Positions 8,531 through 22,623 of a stretch of 64,000 nt of DNA are shown in pieces. The stretch's first letter is position 1; each line of letters starts with the position of its first letter. The notes under the pieces are model-generated. The model made no database searches and had not been told where the DNA came from. It was given only the letters and a program-made list of their open reading frames with translations. The DNA comes from a virus, in the IMG/VR virus record IMGVR_UViG_3300027714_000011, positions 1-64,000 of that record; one strand, given 5' to 3'. The translations under genes were made by a program, and so were the position numbers.

Positions 8531-9730
8531 ATGAACATAGGTATCACAGTACACATAGACAATGAAAATGAAAGCATATGGACTAATGGTATTAAATTAA
8601 ATGCACTGTATTTACTAAAGGCTTTAAAGACTATTGGTTATAACGCATATTTAATAAACGCAGGTAAACTGCAAGGATCATATGAGAATAAAGTTCCTTG
8701 GAATATAGAAGAGTTTCCAATCTATAATTATTCAGGAAAAGCAAAAGACACTGATCTTATGATTTGGTTAGGATCAACATATTCAGACGAAAACATTCTA
8801 GATTTTAAGAAAACTGGCCCTAATAAAAAAGTTGTCAAATATACATGTGGTAATAACTACATGAATGACACTGAAGCGGTTGTCTTTGGAAGTGAAATTA
8901 CAGCAGGTTACAATCAAGAGCTAGATGAAGTGTGGTATGTACCTCAACAAGAAGAACTAAACAGAGAATATTATAGAGTACTTCATAATTTACCAGCAAA
9001 CAAAGTGAAACCAGTACCGTTTATATGGGATCCTGTTTTTATAGATGCTACATGTGAATCTTATTATTCTAATGGCACAATAGAAAACAATATACCTATT
9101 CCAATCTATAGACCTGGAAAACCTAATGAAGAAAAGCAGCTAGCATGTTTTGAACCAAATATTGGCGTTATGAAATATCATATAAATAATCTTTTAATAG
9201 CAGAAGATTATCTAAATAAAGGCGGAGATTTTAAAAAATTAAATGTAGTATGTGGCGACAAATTATTGGGAAGCAAATACTATGCGTCTGTGATTAAACA
9301 CACTAAAATATTTAATGTAGATCCTATTAAATTATCATATTTACCTAGATTAAGAGCAGTTGATGCATTGGCTCAATTGGCAGATGTGGTTATTGCACAC
9401 CAACTCACAAACCCTCTTAATTATTCATATTTGGATGCATTGTATCTTCAGTTTCCATTAGTACATAATGCACCAATGATCAAAGATGCAGGCTATTATT
9501 ATCATGGCAATAATATAGGTTCAGGAGCTAGACAACTAAAACTAGCAATTGAAGAGCATGACAATAACATAGAAGAATATATCGAGCGTAGCGAAAATGT
9601 TTTAACTAGATATACTATATTCAATGAAGGTTTATTAGAAACATATAAACAACTAATAGAAACTACTATGGGAATTAAGGATCATAAATTAAGTGGAAAT
9701 TATGATTGGCAAACAAATCTTTATAAATAA
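8531..9730 (+). CDS. DUF2827-like protein, putative glycosyltransferase
   Basis: SIWTNGIKLN, VPFIWDP, FEPNIGVMK, HQLTNPLNYSYLDALYLQFPLVHN motifs as recalled for DUF2827. Confidence 0.65.
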   Translation: MNIGITVHIDNENESIWTNGIKLNALYLLKALKTIGYNAYLINAGKLQGSYENKVPWNIEEFPIYNYSGKAKDTDLMIWLGSTYSDENILDFKKTGPNKKVVKYTCGNNYMNDTEAVVFGSEITAGYNQELDEVWYVPQQEELNREYYRVLHNLPANKVKPVPFIWDPVFIDATCESYYSNGTIENNIPIPIYRPGKPNEEKQLACFEPNIGVMKYHINNLLIAEDYLNKGGDFKKLNVVCGDKLLGSKYYASVIKHTKIFNVDPIKLSYLPRLRAVDALAQLADVVIAHQLTNPLNYSYLDALYLQFPLVHNAPMIKDAGYYYHGNNIGSGARQLKLAIEEHDNNIEEYIERSENVLTRYTIFNEGLLETYKQLIETTMGIKDHKLSGNYDWQTNLYK

Positions 9731-10332
9731 TGAAGATTAACACTAATCGATTAATCTTTAAAAGACTTATCAGAGAGTATGAATTTTTAATAGAAGATTT
9801 AGCAGACATAGAGGTAGCTAATTTAGATATAAAAAATGAGTTTATGCAATCGTTAAATGAGATCGATGATGATGGTGTTTTAGAGAGCGATAACATGGAC
9901 ACTATGGCAGACGATTGGGCTAAAAATATAAAGGAAGTTGAAGAGTCAGAAAAGGAAACTAATAAACATCCAGATTTTAAAAAGTTATTTAGAAAAACAG
10001 TTGTTAAATGTCATCCTGATAAATTAGGTACTGATCTATTACAAGAAGAATTTGAAAAGCTTAAGACGATATATGAAGATATAGTTGAAGCTAATGAAAC
10101 TGAAGATTGGGCTAAATTAATTAGGTGCGCTATTAAGTTAGATATAGAATTACCTGAATCTGCATATGATCAAATCAAGTCTATAGAAGAAAGTATAAAT
10201 AAACTAAAAGAAAAACAAACTACTATTTTAAATTCTACGCCATGGATGTGGTATAAAACGGACGATGGAGATTCTAGGGCAGATATTCTAAAAAAACATT
10301 TAGAATTTATGTCATTATTGACACAAAAATAA
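9730..10332 (+). CDS. J-domain-like (HPD) protein
   Basis: FKKLFRKTVVKCHPDK followed by helical segment. Confidence 0.6.
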   Translation: MKINTNRLIFKRLIREYEFLIEDLADIEVANLDIKNEFMQSLNEIDDDGVLESDNMDTMADDWAKNIKEVEESEKETNKHPDFKKLFRKTVVKCHPDKLGTDLLQEEFEKLKTIYEDIVEANETEDWAKLIRCAIKLDIELPESAYDQIKSIEESINKLKEKQTTILNSTPWMWYKTDDGDSRADILKKHLEFMSLLTQK

Positions 10333-13418: not shown

Positions 13419-16400
13419 ATGAAGAATATAGGATTTTCGAAGATTGATTTCTGGAGTACTGGTAGCGGCGTGGGAACAAGTCACACCACAAACAAGAGTA
13501 CTACGACCACGTGGAGCACTAGTAAATCTACTACAGAACAACGAAGCACAACTAGGTCTACTAAAACAGCGTTCAATACTAGTCAATCTACTAGTACTGT
13601 ATGGACAACTACTTGGGCAACTTCAAAGAATACTTCTACTACATGGAATACATCTCATAGTACAACTACTACTTGGGCAACTTCACAAAGTACGACTACT
13701 ACATGGACAACTACATGGACAACTTCAAGAGGCACTGATAGATTAACAGATAAATCAACTACTACTACTTGGACAACTTCAAGGGGTACTGATAGATTAA
13801 CAGATAAATCAACTACAACTTTTTGGACAACTAAATGGAATACTAGTCAGTCAACGTCAACAGTATGGACTACGGTATGGCAAACTAGTTTAGGAACTGA
13901 GAAATCTACTACAACTACATACAATACTTCTTGGACTACATCATGGAATACTAGTCAATCAACAACTACAGTTTATACAAGTGCGTATAACACTTCTTGG
14001 TCTACTAATAGAGGAACATCTAGATCAACTGATCATTCCACGGTTACTGTGTATACGACTACGTGGTCAACATCCAGAGTAACGTCAACTGCATATACTA
14101 CTTATTTTAACACAACATGGTCAACTAGTCAATCTACTGAACATTCCACAGTTACAGTATATACGACTACTTGGTCAACTAGTAAAGGTACTAATAGAGG
14201 AACATCACATTCTACAACAACTACTTGGAATACAAGTAAAGGAACATCACATTCTACAGTTACAACATATACGACTACTTGGTCAACTAGTAAGGGTACT
14301 AGTAGATCAACTAACCACTCGACTACAACTACATTTAATACAAGCCAGTCGACGAGCAGAGCTACGACTACTGTATATACAACTACATGGCAAACTAGTC
14401 GCGGTACTTCTAGGGGTACAGCACATTCAACGACAACTAAATGGAATACTAGTCAGTCAACAAGCAAATCTACAACAACTGCGTATACTACTTACTATAA
14501 TACAACTAGAGGAACTAGTAGAGGAACTAGTAAAGCCACAACAACAACATGGCAAACTAGTAAGGGCACATCACATTCAACAGTGACTGTATATACAACA
14601 ACATGGCAAACTAATCACGGTACTTCTAGAGGCACGGCGCATTCAACAACAACTAAATGGAATACTAGTCAGTCAACAAGTAGAACTACTACAACGTCTT
14701 ATACTACTTATTATAACACAACTAGGGGAACTTCTAGGGGAACTAGCAAAGCTACTACAACTACATGGTCAACGAGTAGAGGTACATCACATTCAACTAC
14801 TACAGCGTATACAACTACGTTTAATACTAGTAGAGCAACAACTACTGCATGGACTACGTCATGGACTACTACTTTTGGAACTAGTAGAGGTACACAACAT
14901 GCAACAACAACTACGTGGACAACAACATGGTCAACGAGTAGAGCTACAACAACTTCATATACAACTACATTTAACACTAGTAGAGGAACTAATAGAGGAA
15001 CTAGTAAATCTACTACAACTACATGGCAAACCAGTAGAGGTACATCACATTCAACTCAGACAACATATAATACTAGTTGGAACACAACTAGGGCTACAAC
15101 AACGTCATATAATACATCGTGGACTACTACGTTTGCAACGACACATTCAACATCTAGAGCCACTACTACGACGTGGGCAACGAGTAGAGGTACATCGCAT
15201 TCAACTACTACAGCGTATACAACTACGTTTAATACTAGTAAAGCAACAACAACTACATGGACTACTTCATGGACAACCACTTATGGAACTAGTAGAGGTA
15301 CGCAACACGCAACAACAACTGCGTGGACAACAACATGGTCAACGAGTAAATCTACAACAACTGCTTATACTACTTATTATAATACAACTAGAGGAACTAG
15401 TAGAGGAACTAGTAAATCTACTACAACCACATGGGGAACTAGTAAAGGTACATCACATTCAACAGTCACAGTGTATAATACTAGTTGGAATACATCTAGA
15501 AACACGACGACTTCATGGACTACTTCATGGACAACTACGTTTGCAACGACCCATTCAACATCTAGAGCCACTACTACAACGTGGAACACCACTAGGGCTA
15601 CAACGACTTCGTGGACTACTTATTATAATACCAGTAGAGGAACTAATAGAGGAACTAGTAAATCTACTACTACGACATGGCAAACTAGTCACGGTACATC
15701 ACGTTCAACAACGACTACGTATAATACTAGTTGGAACACTAGTAAAGCAACAACGACTTCATGGACAACTTCATGGACAACTACGTTTGCAACGACCCAT
15801 TCGACATCTAAAGCCACTACTACGACGTGGCAAACTAGTCGCGGTACATCACGTTCAACAACAACTACGTATAATACTGCTTGGAATACATCTAAAAACA
15901 CGACCACTACATTTAATACAACAGTTTATACCGTATTCGCAACGAGTAGAGGTACATCAAAGTCAACGACTACCAAATATGGTACATCAAAGTCAACGAC
16001 TACCACATTTGGTACATCACATTCAACAACGACTGCATGGGTTGCTTCTAGAGGTACATCTAAGTCTACGACGACACAGTGGAGTACTGCTTGGAATACA
16101 TCTAAGTCTACAACGACTAGGTATAACACTAGTAAATCAACGACTACTGTATGGGCTACTTCTTGGGCGACGTCTAAGTCAACTACGACTACTTGGTTGA
16201 CATCTAGGTCTACGACCACTACGTTTAATACTAGTAAATCAACGACTACTACGTTTAACACTAGTAAATCAACGACTACATCATGGTCGTATAATGTTGG
16301 TACATCTAGAACGACACTTAAACATTATTCTAAAACAACACTTAAGACGTATAATAGATCAACATATATTGATCGAAGTACAGTATATAATACTAGTTGG

Positions 16401-17054
16401 ACACAATCCTCAGCAATCAACACGGCATGGAGTACTAGTTATTATATAAACACAAAATGGACAACAGGTAGAAGCACAGTATCAGAGGAAATAGAGTGTA
16501 TAGTAGAAGGCTCATTAGTGCATATTTCAACAACACAACAAGTTAAAGTTGAAACATTGCAACCAGGTGATCCTATTTTAACATTAGATGGAACGTTCAA
16601 TCTCGATGATGAGGATTTATTATTTGCATTAAAAGAAGACCAACTTTCCGATATAAAATCAAATGATGATTATATATCAGCAATCATGGTTTCTCAAGTT
16701 ACAGGCGTATGCGATATAAACAACGGTTTATTAAAAACAACACTCAATCACATTCATATTGTAAAAAGAACTGTTCCAGATTCAGAAATTAAAAAATGGA
16801 TTGCAATAGAAGGTTATCAACTAGTGGTTGGTGATATTTTATGGCACATCACTAATGGAGAAATTCCTATAACATCAGTAGCAGTAGACGAAACAAACAT
16901 ATATACTGTATATAAACTAGACGTTGAACCAAATGATGTCTTTTATGCTAACGGTATTTTAACGCATAACAGGAAATGTGATCCGGAGGAATATTGCAAC
17001 CGCCGCAATATATGTTACGATCGATCAAAATGTTTGGACGATGGACAGTTTTAA
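13419..17054 (+). CDS. Giant Thr/Ser-rich repeat protein A with C-terminal Hint domain and Cys-rich tail
   Basis: About 1000 aa of T/S repeats with W/Y/F or R/K/H/Q anchors every 4 or 6 residues, then Hint domain and a 27-aa tail with 4 Cys. Confidence 0.9.
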   Translation: MKNIGFSKIDFWSTGSGVGTSHTTNKSTTTTWSTSKSTTEQRSTTRSTKTAFNTSQSTSTVWTTTWATSKNTSTTWNTSHSTTTTWATSQSTTTTWTTTWTTSRGTDRLTDKSTTTTWTTSRGTDRLTDKSTTTFWTTKWNTSQSTSTVWTTVWQTSLGTEKSTTTTYNTSWTTSWNTSQSTTTVYTSAYNTSWSTNRGTSRSTDHSTVTVYTTTWSTSRVTSTAYTTYFNTTWSTSQSTEHSTVTVYTTTWSTSKGTNRGTSHSTTTTWNTSKGTSHSTVTTYTTTWSTSKGTSRSTNHSTTTTFNTSQSTSRATTTVYTTTWQTSRGTSRGTAHSTTTKWNTSQSTSKSTTTAYTTYYNTTRGTSRGTSKATTTTWQTSKGTSHSTVTVYTTTWQTNHGTSRGTAHSTTTKWNTSQSTSRTTTTSYTTYYNTTRGTSRGTSKATTTTWSTSRGTSHSTTTAYTTTFNTSRATTTAWTTSWTTTFGTSRGTQHATTTTWTTTWSTSRATTTSYTTTFNTSRGTNRGTSKSTTTTWQTSRGTSHSTQTTYNTSWNTTRATTTSYNTSWTTTFATTHSTSRATTTTWATSRGTSHSTTTAYTTTFNTSKATTTTWTTSWTTTYGTSRGTQHATTTAWTTTWSTSKSTTTAYTTYYNTTRGTSRGTSKSTTTTWGTSKGTSHSTVTVYNTSWNTSRNTTTSWTTSWTTTFATTHSTSRATTTTWNTTRATTTSWTTYYNTSRGTNRGTSKSTTTTWQTSHGTSRSTTTTYNTSWNTSKATTTSWTTSWTTTFATTHSTSKATTTTWQTSRGTSRSTTTTYNTAWNTSKNTTTTFNTTVYTVFATSRGTSKSTTTKYGTSKSTTTTFGTSHSTTTAWVASRGTSKSTTTQWSTAWNTSKSTTTRYNTSKSTTTVWATSWATSKSTTTTWLTSRSTTTTFNTSKSTTTTFNTSKSTTTSWSYNVGTSRTTLKHYSKTTLKTYNRSTYIDRSTVYNTSWTQSSAINTAWSTSYYINTKWTTGRSTVSEEIECIVEGSLVHISTTQQVKVETLQPGDPILTLDGTFNLDDEDLLFALKEDQLSDIKSNDDYISAIMVSQVTGVCDINNGLLKTTLNHIHIVKRTVPDSEIKKWIAIEGYQLVVGDILWHITNGEIPITSVAVDETNIYTVYKLDVEPNDVFYANGILTHNRKCDPEEYCNRRNICYDRSKCLDDGQF
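16497..16970 (+). other. Hint (intein-like) autoprocessing domain in protein A
   Basis: Block A CIVEGSLV (Cys1027), block B TTLNH, block F VYKLDVEPNDVFYANG, block G ILTHN followed by Arg; 158 aa, no endonuclease. Confidence 0.9.
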
Positions 17055-17093
17055 ATAAAAGAAAAAGAAAAAGAAAAAGACTTAAATAATTAG

Positions 17094-20000
17094 ATGGCAT
17101 CATACACTACATATTGGAGCGCTTCGAGAAGTGAAATAAGATACAGGAATACCTATCAAAATACTGCGATAGATCAAACTTATAGTAGGTCTACTTCCCA
17201 TACTACAAGGGTCTATTACAACACGTCATGGACTGCTAACGCAACAACGTCATGGACTGCTAACGTGACCACCGAATGGGCCACTTCATATTCAGCATCT
17301 AAGTCTACAACGACTACGTTTAATACATCTAAGTCTACAACGACTACGTTTAATACATCTAAGTCTACAACGACTACGTTTAATACATCTAAGGCCACCA
17401 CTACAGCATGGACTGCAAGTAGAAATACTAGTAGAGCTACTACAACTACATATATTACATCTAAGGCAACCACTACGGCGTGGACTGCAAAACGTAATAC
17501 AACTAGAGCAACGACGACTTCATGGACTACTTCTTGGAATACTTCTAAGGCTACAACGACTTCGTACAGCACATCTAGAAACACAACGACTTCGTATAAT
17601 ACAACGCATTCAACTACTACATCATATAGCACTTATTGGAATACAGCTAGAAATACAACTAGGAGTACTAGTAAAAGTACCTCAACTACATGGTCAACTA
17701 GTCAAAGCACATCGCATTCAACGACTACGTCGTATACGACTTATTATAATACTAGTAAATCAACGACTACGACATATAACACAACATATAACACAACTAG
17801 GGGAACTAATAGAGGAACTAGTAAAACTACCACAACGACATGGTCAACTAGCCAATCTACTAAGCGTTCAACGACTACATCATATACGACTTATTATAAT
17901 ACTAGTAGAGCAACAACTACTGCATGGACTACGTCATGGACAACTACCTTTCAAACTAACAAAGGTACATCGCGTTCAACAACGACTACGTTTAACACTA
18001 GTAGATCAACGACTACGACATATAACACAACATATAACACAACTAGAGGTACATCTAGGGGAACTAGTAAATCTACAGGGACTACTTGGTCAACTAGCCA
18101 ATCTACTAAGCATTCAACGACTACTTCGTATACGACTTATTATAATACTAGTAGAGCAACAACTACTTCATGGACTACTTCATGGGTAACTACTTTTGGA
18201 ACTAGTAGAGGTACATCACATTCGACAACAACTACGTTTAATACTAACCAATCAACTAGTAAATCTACAACTACGAAGTATACTACGTATTACAATACGA
18301 GTAGAGGTACATCTAGAGGAACTAGTAAATCTACAACAACCACGTGGGCAACAAGTAGAGGTACATCACATTCAACGACTACGTCTTATACAACTACGTT
18401 TAATACTAGTAAATCAACGACTACGACGTTTAATACAACATATAACACGGCTAGAGGTACATCTAGGGGAACTAGTAAATCTACCACAACTACATGGTCA
18501 ACTAGTCAAAGTACTAAGCATTCAACGACTACTTCGTATACGACTTATTATAACACTAGTAAAGCAACGACGACTTCATGGACTACATCATGGACAACTA
18601 CTTTTGGAACTAGTAGAGGTACATCGCACTCGACAACGACTACGTTTAATACTAACCAATCAACTAGTAAATCTACAACTACGAAGTATACTACGTATTA
18701 CAATACGAGTAGAGGTACATCTAGAGGAACTAGTAAATCTACCACAACTACATGGGCAACTAGTAGAGGTACATCACATTCAACGACTACATCTTATACA
18801 ACTACGTTTAATACTAACCAATCAACAACGACTGCATGGACTACTTCATGGGTAACTACTTTTGGAACTAGTAGAGGTACATCACATTCGACAACAACTA
18901 CGTTTAATACTTCATGGCAAACAAGTAGAGCTACAACAACATCTTATACTACTTCATGGACTACATATTACAATACAAGTAGAAGTACAGAACATTCAAC
19001 TACTACATCGTATACGACTAAGTTTAACACTAGTAACTCAACGACGACTTCATGGACTACTTCATGGGTAACTACTTTTGGAACTAGTAGAGGTACATCG
19101 CATGCAACGACTACTGTATGGACTACTTCATGGCAAACGAGTAGAGCTACAACAACAGCTTATACTACTTCATGGACTACATATTACAATACAAGTAGAA
19201 GTACAGAACATTCGACAACAACCGTATTCAATACAACATGGTCAACAAGTAAAGCTACAACAACAGCTTATACTACTTCATGGACTACGACATTTAATAC
19301 TAATCAAAGTACAAAACATTCAACTACTACGTCTTATACAACTACGTTTAATACTAGTAAATCAACGACTACGTCATATACTACTTCGTGGACCACGACG
19401 TTTAATACGAATAAATCTACTAGTCATTCAACGACTACTGTGTATACAACTAGTTGGAATACATCTAGGGGAACAAGTAGAGGTACGGAGCATTCAACAA
19501 CAACCACATTTAACACTAATCAGTCTACTGAACATAGTACAACTACAACATACTCGACATCGTGGACGACTTCATGGAACACTAGTCAATCCACTAGTCA
19601 TTCAACGACACATAGTACAACTACTATTTGGGGTACTTCTTTAGGAACAAGTAGATCTACTAATCACTCAACGACAACAACATGGACAACATATTGGAAT
19701 ACTAGTCGAGTTGAGTCGCGTAACACTACGACTACGTGGGTGACACAAGATCAAACAAGTCAGTCAACTGTAACTGAGTGGACAACTTCATGGACAACTT
19801 CATGGAACACAAGTCAATCTACGGTAACTACGTGGACAACTTCATGGACAACTTCATGGAAAACAAGTCAATCTACTAATAAAAGTACAATGACTACGTG
19901 GAACACAACTAAGTCTACTGCGACAGTGTATACAACATCTAGAGTTACTTCTACAACGTGGAATACAAGTCAGTCAACTAATAAAAATACGACAACAACA

Positions 20001-20222
20001 TGGTCGACTTTATATGATGTGACTACTACTTGGACCACGTCTTGGAACACCACTACTACATGGAATACAACTAAAGCTACCACTACCAATTGGACAACGA
20101 GTTATTCAACTGAATACGAAGCAAGAAGAACATGGTATGGAAAAGTCCACACAGGACATGAGATATTCCCTTACGCTACAGTACAACAGTGGAGAGTCAA
20201 TTCTTATTTAGGTCGACCATAG
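17094..20222 (+). CDS. Giant Thr/Ser-rich repeat protein B, antiparallel complement of protein A
   Basis: Same repeat grammar; anchor pattern is the reversed, class-swapped pattern of protein A. Confidence 0.9.
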   Translation: MASYTTYWSASRSEIRYRNTYQNTAIDQTYSRSTSHTTRVYYNTSWTANATTSWTANVTTEWATSYSASKSTTTTFNTSKSTTTTFNTSKSTTTTFNTSKATTTAWTASRNTSRATTTTYITSKATTTAWTAKRNTTRATTTSWTTSWNTSKATTTSYSTSRNTTTSYNTTHSTTTSYSTYWNTARNTTRSTSKSTSTTWSTSQSTSHSTTTSYTTYYNTSKSTTTTYNTTYNTTRGTNRGTSKTTTTTWSTSQSTKRSTTTSYTTYYNTSRATTTAWTTSWTTTFQTNKGTSRSTTTTFNTSRSTTTTYNTTYNTTRGTSRGTSKSTGTTWSTSQSTKHSTTTSYTTYYNTSRATTTSWTTSWVTTFGTSRGTSHSTTTTFNTNQSTSKSTTTKYTTYYNTSRGTSRGTSKSTTTTWATSRGTSHSTTTSYTTTFNTSKSTTTTFNTTYNTARGTSRGTSKSTTTTWSTSQSTKHSTTTSYTTYYNTSKATTTSWTTSWTTTFGTSRGTSHSTTTTFNTNQSTSKSTTTKYTTYYNTSRGTSRGTSKSTTTTWATSRGTSHSTTTSYTTTFNTNQSTTTAWTTSWVTTFGTSRGTSHSTTTTFNTSWQTSRATTTSYTTSWTTYYNTSRSTEHSTTTSYTTKFNTSNSTTTSWTTSWVTTFGTSRGTSHATTTVWTTSWQTSRATTTAYTTSWTTYYNTSRSTEHSTTTVFNTTWSTSKATTTAYTTSWTTTFNTNQSTKHSTTTSYTTTFNTSKSTTTSYTTSWTTTFNTNKSTSHSTTTVYTTSWNTSRGTSRGTEHSTTTTFNTNQSTEHSTTTTYSTSWTTSWNTSQSTSHSTTHSTTTIWGTSLGTSRSTNHSTTTTWTTYWNTSRVESRNTTTTWVTQDQTSQSTVTEWTTSWTTSWNTSQSTVTTWTTSWTTSWKTSQSTNKSTMTTWNTTKSTATVYTTSRVTSTTWNTSQSTNKNTTTTWSTLYDVTTTWTTSWNTTTTWNTTKATTTNWTTSYSTEYEARRTWYGKVHTGHEIFPYATVQQWRVNSYLGRP

Positions 20223-20296: not shown

Positions 20297-21208
20297 ATGG
20301 AAATGTTTAACAAAAAGGTTCTTAAGGAAAGAATAGGACCTCTTAAGAAAAACGATAAACTTAACGCACTCGAACAAGTAGAGAGATACGTACTTAGAAA
20401 ATGTAAAGAACTTGGATTAGAACATAGTTATGATGTAATAGCAGAAGAGATGCCATACTTTAAAACTATGGGATATACTGAATATGCTACGTGTTTTATG
20501 TTACAGCCCTTAAATTTAAAAATGAGAACTGCTCAGATCAATGATGCATATCACGATAACGTGGATAATGTATCAGATTGGGCTGGTTATTTTAGAGCAA
20601 ATGTTCAAGATAAGGTTGCTAATAAATATCAATCTCGTAAAGAGAATTTTAGTCAATGGCCTGCAAAACCAGTTTTAGTAGTTTTACCAGGATCTAATAA
20701 ACTTAAATCAAACTGTTGTTTAAATAAATTAATAAAGGTTGCTGAAGAAAACAAAGGTAACATTTATTTTAAACCGCATCCTATCACAACACATGCTGTA
20801 ATAGGCGAAATTAAAGATTTATTTGGTGAAGAATCTATTTTACCAAGAGACATTGATCTTTATCACTTCATGCAACAAGCCGAAACAGTATACACTACAC
20901 ATATTAGCGAAAGTGCATTATATTCTTTAGTGTTGGGAAAAACAGTAGAACCAATAGATGTTTGGAACAATGTACATCAAGGTTCATTTTATACTGTAAA
21001 TTCTGCACTATTTGATAATGCTAGCAATGTTGATGAATGGATAAATAGAGTTTTTTCTAGTCCTAAATCAGGTATTATTAATCCAGCATTGGATACGGAT
21101 TGGAAAGATAAAGTAGATAAGTACATGACATATATGTACGAAAAAAGAGAATTCTATAAAGGATGGTTTTTGGACCTTCCACCTAAAGTAAAACGTAACA
21201 AAGATTAA
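20297..21208 (+). CDS. Capsule-biosynthesis-like (GT-B) glycosyltransferase-like protein
   Basis: LVVLPGS...IYFKPHP...VYTTHISESALYSLVLGKTV resembles the C-terminal domain of KpsS/KpsC-like enzymes. Confidence 0.5.
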   Translation: MEMFNKKVLKERIGPLKKNDKLNALEQVERYVLRKCKELGLEHSYDVIAEEMPYFKTMGYTEYATCFMLQPLNLKMRTAQINDAYHDNVDNVSDWAGYFRANVQDKVANKYQSRKENFSQWPAKPVLVVLPGSNKLKSNCCLNKLIKVAEENKGNIYFKPHPITTHAVIGEIKDLFGEESILPRDIDLYHFMQQAETVYTTHISESALYSLVLGKTVEPIDVWNNVHQGSFYTVNSALFDNASNVDEWINRVFSSPKSGIINPALDTDWKDKVDKYMTYMYEKREFYKGWFLDLPPKVKRNKD

Positions 21209-21217
21209 ACCAAAAAA

Positions 21218-21646
21218 ATGCAAAGAAACATTAAATTTAATGAGAATGTCGGAGATGATGGACACTTGGTATCACCAGTATTAAAGAATGGTTGCAAAAA
21301 CTATCTAATCGATATTGATGGAACTATTACAGATGACGTACCAAATGAAGAGCCAGAGAGAATGGCAGTAGTTCAACCTTATAAAGATTCTGTAGAAACA
21401 CTTAACAGGTGGTATGACGAAGGTCATATTGTAACCTTCTTTACATCAAGAACTGAAGAAGTTAGAGATATCACAGAAACATGGTTAAATGAGCACGGTT
21501 ATAAGTATCATGGTTTATTAATGGGCAAACCTAGGGGTGGTAATTACCATTGGGTTGATAATCACATTGTCAAAGGAACTAGATATGAAGGTGTTTGGTC
21601 TGACCTAGTAAAAGAAGAAAGAATGATAGAAGTCTTTCCTTCATAG
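21218..21646 (+). CDS. Small HAD-superfamily phosphatase
   Basis: IDIDGT, FFTSR, MGKPRG, WVDN. Confidence 0.85.
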   Translation: MQRNIKFNENVGDDGHLVSPVLKNGCKNYLIDIDGTITDDVPNEEPERMAVVQPYKDSVETLNRWYDEGHIVTFFTSRTEEVRDITETWLNEHGYKYHGLLMGKPRGGNYHWVDNHIVKGTRYEGVWSDLVKEERMIEVFPS

Positions 21647-21657
21647 ATATATAATAC

Positions 21658-22623
21658 ATGAAGAAGATACGCACATTTAATGATTTTATCAACGAAGCTG
21701 AGGAAGCTCAAGATCTACATAAGATTTATTTAGCATTTGATCCAGATTTGGGACATCGTTTCTGGTCTTATAAAGATTTTGCTGGCGATAAGTTTTTTAT
21801 CAGATTAACACCTGAGACATATAAGGATATAGAAATAAATAAGGATTATCCAGTTCTTACTTATAATTCAGATACTGTGCAAATGTTAATTGATAAGGAT
21901 CTTATTAGTACTGATAATGTGTATAACCTTCCAGAATTTATTAAAAATTCAGGATCTAAGAAAGAATTTCATAAAATAGTTGATGGTGATGATAACATCC
22001 CTAAAACTACAAGTGATCAAGATGATGCAATTAAACTTTTAGGATTTCCAATTATTGCAAAACCAGCAGAAGGACATTCTGGAATTGGTATTGTTATTAT
22101 GAAAGATCAAAAGGAATGGGATGCTACAGACCACGATAAGTTGGATGTGTATTCTCAGTATGTAGATAAAAAATCAGAGCACAGATTCTTTACATTTAAA
22201 GGAGAACCTTTCTTTTGGCAAGAAAGACAACCTACAAATGATAAGTCTAAGAATGGTGGTGGTAATCCAGACGAAAAAATGGGATTCAATTATATTAAAA
22301 GAAACTCTGATAAAACACCACAAAAATATAGAGATCTAATAAAGAGATTTGGTGCAATGTTCTCAGATTTACCTTATATATGTTTTGATATAATGGAAGA
22401 TCAAGATGGTAAATTATACATCATTGAAAGTAACAGTATGCCAGGTGTGCCGTTCGATGCAACTGTTGCAATATATAGAACTCTATTTAATGACTTTTAT
22501 AAAAGAGGCGTGGACGGAAAAACAGATTTAAAATTAAAAGAATATTCGGATTTTATGTGTAAGAAATCAATGACACTTGATGGTGGAGATAGATTTAAAT
22601 TAGGCACAGATCTAGAAGATTAA
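21658..22623 (+). CDS. ATP-grasp (RimK-like) ligase with N-terminal capsid-targeting-like peptide
   Basis: IPKT, FPIIAKPAEGHSGIGI, QYVDKKSEHR, FDIMEDQDGKLYIIESNSMPG; N-terminus MKKIRTFNDFINE. Confidence 0.8.
   Translation: MKKIRTFNDFINEAEEAQDLHKIYLAFDPDLGHRFWSYKDFAGDKFFIRLTPETYKDIEINKDYPVLTYNSDTVQMLIDKDLISTDNVYNLPEFIKNSGSKKEFHKIVDGDDNIPKTTSDQDDAIKLLGFPIIAKPAEGHSGIGIVIMKDQKEWDATDHDKLDVYSQYVDKKSEHRFFTFKGEPFFWQERQPTNDKSKNGGGNPDEKMGFNYIKRNSDKTPQKYRDLIKRFGAMFSDLPYICFDIMEDQDGKLYIIESNSMPGVPFDATVAIYRTLFNDFYKRGVDGKTDLKLKEYSDFMCKKSMTLDGGDRFKLGTDLED

Follow-up and report, generated by a model that had tools for sequence, protein, structure and literature searches.

Hint domains are known from inteins, Hedgehog processors, toxin-releasing modules and ubiquitin-like conjugators. 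The Hedgehog autoprocessing domain cleaves at its own Cys1 and thereby releases its N-terminal passenger; it lacks a terminal His-Asn and carries a sterol-recognition extension. On phage fibres and spikes, the classical self-cleaving and discarded intramolecular chaperone is the C-terminal Peptidase_S74 domain (the endosialidase/T5 pb1-type CIMCDs), which acts as a trimer. We know of no Hint domain that serves as a folding chaperone, and when we searched the literature for Hint domains on phage fibres, inteins of terminases and RNRs were all that turned up. The type A bacterial intein-like (BIL) domains, defined by Cys1 and a terminal His-Asn with no nucleophile at +1, reside in variable surface or structural proteins, give predominantly cleavage products and can ligate via a free alpha-amine (PMC4031507). 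BIL2 of Tetrahymena conjugates its N-terminal flank to the amines (lysines) of several other proteins, and does so without ATP (PMC8616854).

The locus described here lies within 64,000 nucleotides of the virus record IMGVR_UViG_3300027714_000011 (the window) and encodes two large proteins, A and B, both on the plus strand. Protein A (13419-17054) is composed of a repeat body, a predicted Hint domain and a tail, in that order. The body (residues 1-1026; 13419..16496) is rich in Thr and Ser, with aromatic and basic residues interspersed, and closes with a non-repetitive end (residues 957-1025; 16287..16493). Next comes the predicted scissile junction E1026|C1027 (16494..16499), in which C1027 is Cys1 of the Hint, followed by the BIL-A-like domain itself (A1027-1184, 158 residues; 16497..16970), with its Cys1, block B and HN, and by a 27-residue tail (RKCDPEEYC...; 16971..17051) that holds a four-Cys motif and places Arg at +1. 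Beyond a purine-rich spacer containing an (AAAAAG)x4 run (17055..17093) begins protein B (1042 residues; 17094..20222), the first 70 residues of which (MASYTTYW...) are encoded by 17094..17303. Searches of full-length A and B against Pfam and PHROGs gave zero matches. A read-through fusion of the two was considered and rejected: in the window both are read in one frame, yet two stop codons, TAA and TAG, come between them, and in a related locus (L001) they lie in different frames.

When the whole proteins were compared at all offsets, a single ungapped antiparallel register, k = i + j = 1026, emerged as the unique optimum and made B the antiparallel partner of A1-1026, with 16 residues of B extending past the N-terminus of A. 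At this register an aromatic residue (W, Y or F) faces a basic one (R, K or H) at 185 of 1025 positions (18%), against 111 such pairs at the runner-up, k = 990, a background of 2.6% on average (SD 2.5%) over 469 offsets, and 7% at the top offset of the parallel orientation. Antiparallel pairing of A with B far exceeds that of A with A, of B with B and of any parallel arrangement. The pair code at k = 1026 is enriched 17-23x for Y-H, 13x for F-R, about 9x for W-R/K, 12x for W-Q and 3-4x for S-N. Descent of B from an inverted DNA copy of A was ruled out, as both genes lie on the plus strand and no inverted repeat links them beyond four chance-level ones of 23-28 nt.

A preliminary description of this DNA had held that the complementarity runs on through the non-repetitive ends, and this is borne out. 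A957-1025 pairs in register with B69-1 through 8 aromatic/basic pairs plus W1004-Q22, where shuffles give 2.4+-1.4 aromatic/basic pairs (n=200,000; p=4.5e-4), and all nine residue pairs listed in that description are correctly given, each summing to 1026. Taken alone, the end gives a weaker local signal, with 7 pairs at k = 1022 versus 8 at k = 1026, so that its register is secured chiefly by the unbroken connection to the repeat body. Because 'CIVEGS' begins at residue 1027 of A, M1 of B falls opposite I1025 and A2 opposite E1024, so the register stops beside E1026-C1027, again as described. The analysis thus confirms that the register is real in ending exactly at the start of the Hint domain. 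A modelled complex of A927-1211 with B1-100, built on a 7-row alignment for each, scored 0.00, the fold of the partner being uncertain, and is given no weight in either direction.

The AF2 model of the Hint domain has a pLDDT of 93.9 and a pTM of 0.87, and Foldseek returned 40 PDB matches for it at E<=1e-3, all of them, among the matches listed, BIL, intein or Hedgehog structures. The best is BIL2 (6y75/6tmm, E 4e-8), and the other top matches comprise the C. thermocellum BIL (2lwy), inteins and Hedgehog (1at0, 6tyy). Profile scores are low: TIGR01443 (intein_Cterm) stands just above its cut-off (16.0 bits vs 15.6), whereas Pfam Hint_2 (PF13403; 16.3 bits vs 28.4) and Intein_splicing (PF14890; 15.1 bits vs 35.8) stay below their gathering thresholds. 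The residues expected of the Hint/intein superfamily are present in the beta-fold, namely Cys1 and, in block B, T1108-x-x-H1111 (KTTLNH). The domain closes with THN-RK, in which HN are residues 1183-1184 and R1185 occupies +1, so that the earlier reading of HN-R without a Cys, Ser or Thr nucleophile at +1 stands. Across the seven Hint-bearing loci, Cys1, T-x-x-H and the Asn are invariant (7/7), the penultimate His is kept in 6/7, and the +1 residue is R, K, N or F. Compared with a canonical (class 1) intein, the domain has the His-Asn C-terminal splicing motif but no Cys/Ser/Thr at +1; rather than interrupting a conserved host protein and leaving a real C-extein, it comes last in the chain, with tails of 3-44 residues behind it. 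Cys1 and a terminal His-Asn without a +1 nucleophile are the hallmarks of BIL type A, and a Hint of this type, probably catalytically competent to judge from its residues and modelled fold, best explains the C-terminus of A.

Set beside the described systems, the domain most resembles the type A BILs such as 2lwy, sharing the mini Hint, Cys1, TxxH and His-Asn and the missing +1 Cys/Ser/Thr; it differs from them in closing a phage fibre protein exactly where an inter-chain antiparallel register has its tip, in its four-Cys tail and in an identity of only about 19% to the solved BILs. BIL2, from the T. thermophila BUBL1 locus, is the closest in structure, and its amine-conjugation chemistry is that proposed in the preliminary description, but its passenger is a ubiquitin-like domain and its acceptors are lysines, whereas neither a conserved acceptor Lys nor a conserved N-terminal nucleophile was seen in B. 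With Hedgehog it shares the fold and the C-terminal position; unlike Hedgehog, it has HN and is followed just by the 27-residue Cys-rich tail, with no sterol-recognition-like region. Peptidase_S74 is absent from A of the window and has an unrelated fold and chemistry (Ser-Lys dyad, trimer); in related phages it is found in this very slot.

This A/B design is repeated in 31 distinct loci of related phages, where the optimal register follows the length of B (r=0.997) and the N-terminus of B lies opposite the end of the A repeat body every time. What follows that end varies. In seven loci (type i) it is an active Hint fused to A, and here the check named in the preliminary description, whether homologues keep the start of B aligned with the Hint junction, came out in its favour to within 0-10 residues in 7/7 (0, 0, +2, -7, -10, -10, -10). 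Type ii carries on A an ~88-aa domain, which separates the register end from the S74 cleavage site and is retained on A, and then Peptidase_S74; all nine tails match PF13884 (best E 2.9e-7), and these Pfam matches settled the assignment, a profile of the tails against PDB sequences having failed to find the endosialidase chaperone. In type iii, a separate methyltransferase-like protein encoded between A and B contains a dead homologue of the Hint (hhalign 99.7%, E 7e-26), with an invariant Gly in the Cys1 column and no HN, and A itself ends in a native Cys motif, GGCxRGC[IQM]. Type iv (L057) has neither Hint nor S74. The dead Hint is intact in 13 distinct loci at 35-66% identity, which suggests that the fold does something other than catalysis at the tip, for example binding or chaperoning, and it is missing exactly where S74 occurs. 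A tblastn search of the window and of the Hint-type loci for the methyltransferase-like gene seen in types ii and iii gave no match at E<=1. In all types B starts with MA or MP, and Cys, Ser or Thr never follows the Met. In an unrooted tree of the downstream anchor gene, the S74 clade joins part of the type iii loci (95/92 support); among cultured phages, those of Caulobacter and Vibrio carry relatives of this gene, all of them distant (<30%), so no annotated relative was of help. The tip slot is thus shown to be modular, with a constant register end and an interchangeable module behind it.

The Hint of A also belongs to a wider family of 496 cluster representatives (E<=1e-10). No match to the Hint was returned when the phage collection was searched with tblastn. 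Its members are almost always the last domain, often behind a Gly linker, and sit on many unrelated passengers without a B-like partner; the phage of the window has a second one on an unpaired BACON-like protein. HN is present in 142/147 and Ser or Cys at +1 in 5/147 only, and an approximate count by motif search gives 107 Cys and 11 Ser at position 1. Most tails are 2-10 residues long and of the form 'xK'. The four-Cys tail is kept in 5/7 Hint loci, the exceptions being L001 (5 residues) and L081 (3 residues), which have no Cys. The tail is found as well behind Hints whose passengers are not rich in Thr (P0058), so it goes with the Hint rather than with the protein that bears it. For another passenger, some orthologues have a Hint and others do not, as would be expected if the mature product were equal either way.

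These observations are consistent with the Hint being a BIL-A-like, self-removing assembly module at the tip of a hairpin, a reading to which we give about an even chance. A and B would pair up as the chains of a long, heteromeric phage fibre, or build an assembly of such pairs, and the antiparallel arrangement would bring the processed C-terminus of A and the N-terminus of B to one tip. The Hint may hold or nucleate this tip for a time while B, whose translation comes right after that of A, zips up along A in the reverse direction. An N-S acyl shift at E1026|C1027 and hydrolysis of the thioester would then release the Hint together with its four-Cys tail, leaving the mature terminus ...SEEIE beside, and unbonded to, the N-terminus of B. 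Cleavage is what the conserved residues suggest; a chaperoning or nucleating role and release by water are likewise inferred. The preliminary description had offered a Hint that nucleates folding and is shed only as its second choice; it fits the comparative data better than ligation, its cleavage and nucleation steps remaining presumptive. Against it weigh the conserved HN and four-Cys tail, which hydrolysis at the N-terminal junction would not call for, the lack of known chaperones among Hint domains, and the trimeric action of the S74 chaperones, of which the Hint gives no sign. The closeness of the N-terminus of B to the thioester is equally compatible with aminolysis.

The first choice of that description was ligation in trans, in which the alpha-amine of B, freed of its Met and positioned by zipping, attacks the Cys1027 thioester, so that A1026 is joined to B and the Hint released. 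What stands of this proposal is the geometry, conserved in 7/7 Hint loci, and the chemistry: resolution of a Hint thioester by external nucleophiles has precedents in acyl transfer to free amines by type A BILs (PMC4031507) and BIL2 (PMC8616854), the best structural matches of this Hint, and the Hint-type loci, in the DNA available for them, lack the methyltransferase-like gene that lies between A and B in other types. The comparative data do not favour it. Most relatives (types ii, iii and iv) build this duplex although their A carries no domain able to form a thioester; B shows no Hint-specific Cys, Ser or Thr behind its MA/MP start, and Pro would be exposed in 4/7 Hint loci; the offset between register and junction drifts from +2 to -10; the Hint family is generic, mostly partnerless and absent from some orthologues; a fused A-Hint-B reading frame, or any Thr-rich stretch after the Hint, was absent from 150 representatives; and the conserved HN and tail would be superfluous to the reaction. 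We therefore regard this ligation as quite improbable, and so too its product, a hairpin fibre of about 2,070 residues closed by a covalent bond.

The same HN and tail are what splicing in cis would use. As in type A BILs, where splicing is documented though cleavage products dominate (PMC4031507), the thioester would combine with cyclisation of Asn1184, and the freed amine of R1185 would attack to give an A ending in ...SEEIE-RKCDPEEYC.... The outcome would be a Cys-rich cap at the fibre tip. The near-universal HN of the family, the four-Cys tail in five of the seven Hint loci, the echo of the N-flank motif in the tails of P0042 and P0056, and the native GGCxRGC[IQM] of type iii, from which a Cys-bearing tip may be a common mature state, all argue for it; the Cys-free tails of L001 and L081, the short 'xK' tails of most of the family and the four-Cys tail on P0058 weigh on the other side, and we consider it very doubtful. 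No more probable is a Hedgehog-like transfer, in which a small molecule or a side chain of another virion protein resolves the thioester and tags or anchors the C-terminus of A. Hedgehog domains among the fold matches, the C-terminal position and minimal tails of the family, and the conjugation of BIL2 to lysines of several substrates (PMC8616854) speak for such a step, but the 158-residue domain and its 27-residue tail leave no sterol-recognition-like region, no candidate acceptor was identified, and relatives without an active Hint manage without it. An unlikely reading, finally, is that of a parasitic or decaying intein-like insertion, self-removing or inactive and of no use to the phage. 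It would account for the patchy occurrence among orthologous passengers and the sub-threshold Pfam scores; against this, the 158-aa mini-domain has no homing endonuclease, its catalytic residues are kept throughout a very large family, it is always C-terminal and never inside conserved host motifs, and 13 distinct loci have kept a dead copy between A and B.

To our knowledge, no Hint domain had been described in the role of a tip module on a phage fibre. In this locus, a Hint that appears catalytically intact by its residues is found at the exact meeting point of two chains of a residue-coded antiparallel fibre. If its thioester were passed to B, the result would be a novel type of ligation between proteins, usable as it stands as a tool, as well as the first natural Hint-mediated joining of two separately translated viral structural proteins. 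If instead the Hint is only shed, as the assembly-module reading has it, it would represent a second, independent answer to the removable-chaperone problem of phage fibres. The variation of the slot between Hint, S74 and the dead Hint-methyltransferase constitutes a natural experiment on how a two-chain zipper of 400-1,400 residues is started, and the analysis also delineates an extensive, uncharacterised family of Hints at the C-termini of phage-like structural proteins, comprising about 500 clusters.

Genes A (13419-17054, + strand; 1211 residues) and B (17094-20222, + strand; 1042 residues) code for adjacent fibre proteins that are each about 40% Thr, with W/Y/F and R/K/H interspersed. The window that holds them, part of a 78.5-kb viral record, has a GC content of about 32%, carries all its genes on the + strand and encodes baseplate-wedge and helicase homologues, and two collagen-like fibre genes lie directly upstream of A and B. 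The A-B spacer (17055-17093) contains the purine run (AAAAAG)x4, and B shares the reading frame of A, with TAA and TAG stops in between. Around the fibre genes, at 9730-10332, 21218-21646 and 21658-22623, are weak matches under the Pfam cut-off to a DnaJ J-domain (E 9.7e-5), an HAD-type phosphatase and an ATP-grasp protein (RimK/TTL-like), possible helpers of fibre folding or modification.

When every antiparallel offset of A1-1026 against B was scored by counting aromatic/basic pairs, i+j=1026 (A residue i, B residue j) was the sole outlier, with 185 pairs in 1025 positions; the second-best offset gave 111, offsets averaged 2.6%, and no parallel offset exceeded 7%. The pairing code is Y-H, F-R, W-R/K/Q and S-N, and it is heterotypic, as A with A and B with B score less than half of A with B in either orientation. 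A DNA inverted repeat as the source of the complementarity was ruled out on checking. All residue pairs listed in the preliminary description were correct on rechecking, as was the placing of Cys1027 at the first residue of CIVEGS. Within the non-repetitive end (A957-1025 against B69-1), 8 pairs are formed versus 2.4±1.4 in shuffles (p=4.5e-4); moving the register by 4 still leaves 7, so the end register is held mostly by continuity with the repeat body.

The C-terminal domain of A (residues 1027-1184) is a Hint domain. Pfam matches are sub-threshold (Hint_2 N-block, E 0.013; Intein_splicing C-block, E 0.021) and TIGR01443 (intein_Cterm) is slightly over its cut-off. AF2 modelling from a 37-row alignment reached pLDDT 93.9, and the Foldseek matches listed for the model are all Hint structures, in the order Tetrahymena BUBL1 BIL2, Prp8 inteins, C. 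thermocellum BIL, RecA/DnaB inteins and Hedgehog. All seven homologous Hint-bearing A proteins share Cys1, T-x-x-H and the terminal Asn, and one of them has Tyr in place of the penultimate His. Type A bacterial intein-like (BIL) domains have Cys1 and His-Asn and lack a +1 nucleophile; cleavage dominates, and splicing is possible via the freed alpha-amine (PMC4031507). By this definition, with Arg at +1, the domain is classed from its sequence as a type A BIL. Directly after the HN follows a 4-Cys tail (16971-17051; C-x-P-[ED]-[ED]-Y-C-x5-C-[YW/E]-D-x4-5-C), possibly a metal-binding or disulfide motif, which recurs in the related loci L002-L005 and in the Hint-family proteins P0007, P0010, P0012, P0015 and P0058, the last with a passenger not rich in Thr.

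Searching 1.8 billion sequences with a profile built from the seven active-type Hints gave 496 cluster representatives with E<=1e-10. In the best 150 of these, the Hint is the last domain in nearly all, HN ends it in 142 of 147, the +1 position holds K/I/A/V/L/R, with Ser or Cys in just 5, and most tails have 2-10 residues, frequently 'xK'. A Gly linker commonly precedes Cys1, and the passengers are diverse, few being Thr-rich. The same phage carries a second such Hint outside the window, forming the C-terminus of a BACON-like protein and preceded by the linker GGGGSGGG (G000:C1:78144-78527, cut by the record end; L083:757-1908). In another phage group a 734-aa protein bearing this Hint precedes an unrelated 1,300-aa protein, and an orthologue of its passenger is entirely without Hint. 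Some metagenomic proteins (P0069, P0156, P0079, P0049, P0057) hold 4 to 9 tandem Hints each and have the look of self-cleaving polyproteins.

Through the conserved downstream anchor gene (20297-21205), 80 viral loci were fetched, and two Thr-rich ORFs occupy the A/B position in each with sufficient upstream DNA. For 31 distinct loci one antiparallel offset, k, is uniquely best, and B length follows it closely (r=0.997; B minus k, median 10 residues) from 275 to 1416. In every one of them k is the end of the A repeat body, and the B N-terminus thus always lies opposite that end. In L014, L017, L023 and L040 (L040:4295-6561), all metagenomic, A is shorter than k, in L040 by an apparent frameshift within the repeats, and these breaks are either genuine or artefacts of assembling repetitive DNA.

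The module at the tip varies. Type i loci (the window, L001, L002-L005, L081) have a predicted-active Hint fused to A. In nine distinct type ii loci (including L055:6698-7237 and L060:1926-2465), A continues into a domain of about 88 residues with two conserved Cys and then S[DE]RxLK... (as in SDRSLKK...); all nine tails match Peptidase_S74 (S74; best E 2.9e-7), and a stand-alone methyltransferase-like ORF of about 187 aa separates A from B. In 13 distinct type iii loci, the A C-terminus is GGCxRGC[IQM] or a run of Gly, and a separate protein of about 350 aa is encoded between A and B (L036:4233-5279; also L006, L007, L014, L016, L017, L027, L032, L033, L040, L041, L046, L051), its stop overlapping the B start. 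This protein fuses a SAM-methyltransferase-like domain (Methyltransf_25, E 1.3e-4, under the Pfam cut-off) with a Hint homologue of full length (hhalign 99.7%, E 7e-26). The homologue is predicted to be catalytically dead: its Cys1 column holds Gly throughout, the terminal HN is missing, and several loci also lack the block B His. Type iv (L057) has none of these modules. Types cluster on the anchor-gene tree, which can be explained by three changes and places the S74 clade with some of the type iii loci. Only L032 and L041/L043 have an extra Cys both at B residue 7 (MPNTQTCV..) and close to the A end (..YHSCWMTQ.GGCFRNCI). The two Cys are no more than two register positions apart, so the tip might be closed by a disulfide in these phages.

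Since register end and junction coincide repeatedly, the Hint is placed at the tip where A and B meet. The preliminary description suggested a possible ligation of A to B, with the N-terminal amine or Ser3 of B brought to the Cys1027 thioester, or else a Hint that nucleates folding and is shed. The geometry is right and the chemistry has precedent (PMC4031507; PMC8616854), but comparison speaks against the ligation itself, which we consider improbable: in most lineages the same duplex forms with no thioester involved, B begins MA/MP in all types with no Hint-specific adaptation, Pro would be exposed at its start in 4 of 7 Hint loci, and k minus (Cys1-1) drifts by up to 10 residues (0, 0, +2, -7, -10, -10, -10). 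Splicing in cis onto the 4-Cys tail would fit the conserved HN and tail and the native Cys ends of type iii A proteins; it too has little probability, as the tail accompanies the Hint on other passengers (P0058) and is only 3-5 residues long in two Hint loci. Transfer of the thioester to another nucleophile is equally doubtful, and a Hint that is inactive or without function is unlikely.

The best-supported role, to which we give about an even chance, is that of a removable assembly module at the tip, shed after use. S74, a self-cleaving chaperone known to be discarded, is interchangeable with the Hint in this slot; on other passengers the Hint is a generic, optional addition; and the retention of a dead Hint at the tip, in a separate type iii protein, points to a role of the fold there that does not depend on catalysis. 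B would zip from the tip while emerging from the ribosome, which fits A preceding B in the gene order. In the type iii protein, the motif VMMEWEQPIMEKMAE...LECGFGMG of the N-domain is reminiscent of guanidino-group (GAMT/Rmt2-type) methyltransferases and, if the protein is such an enzyme, the Arg residues of the fibre would be candidate substrates.
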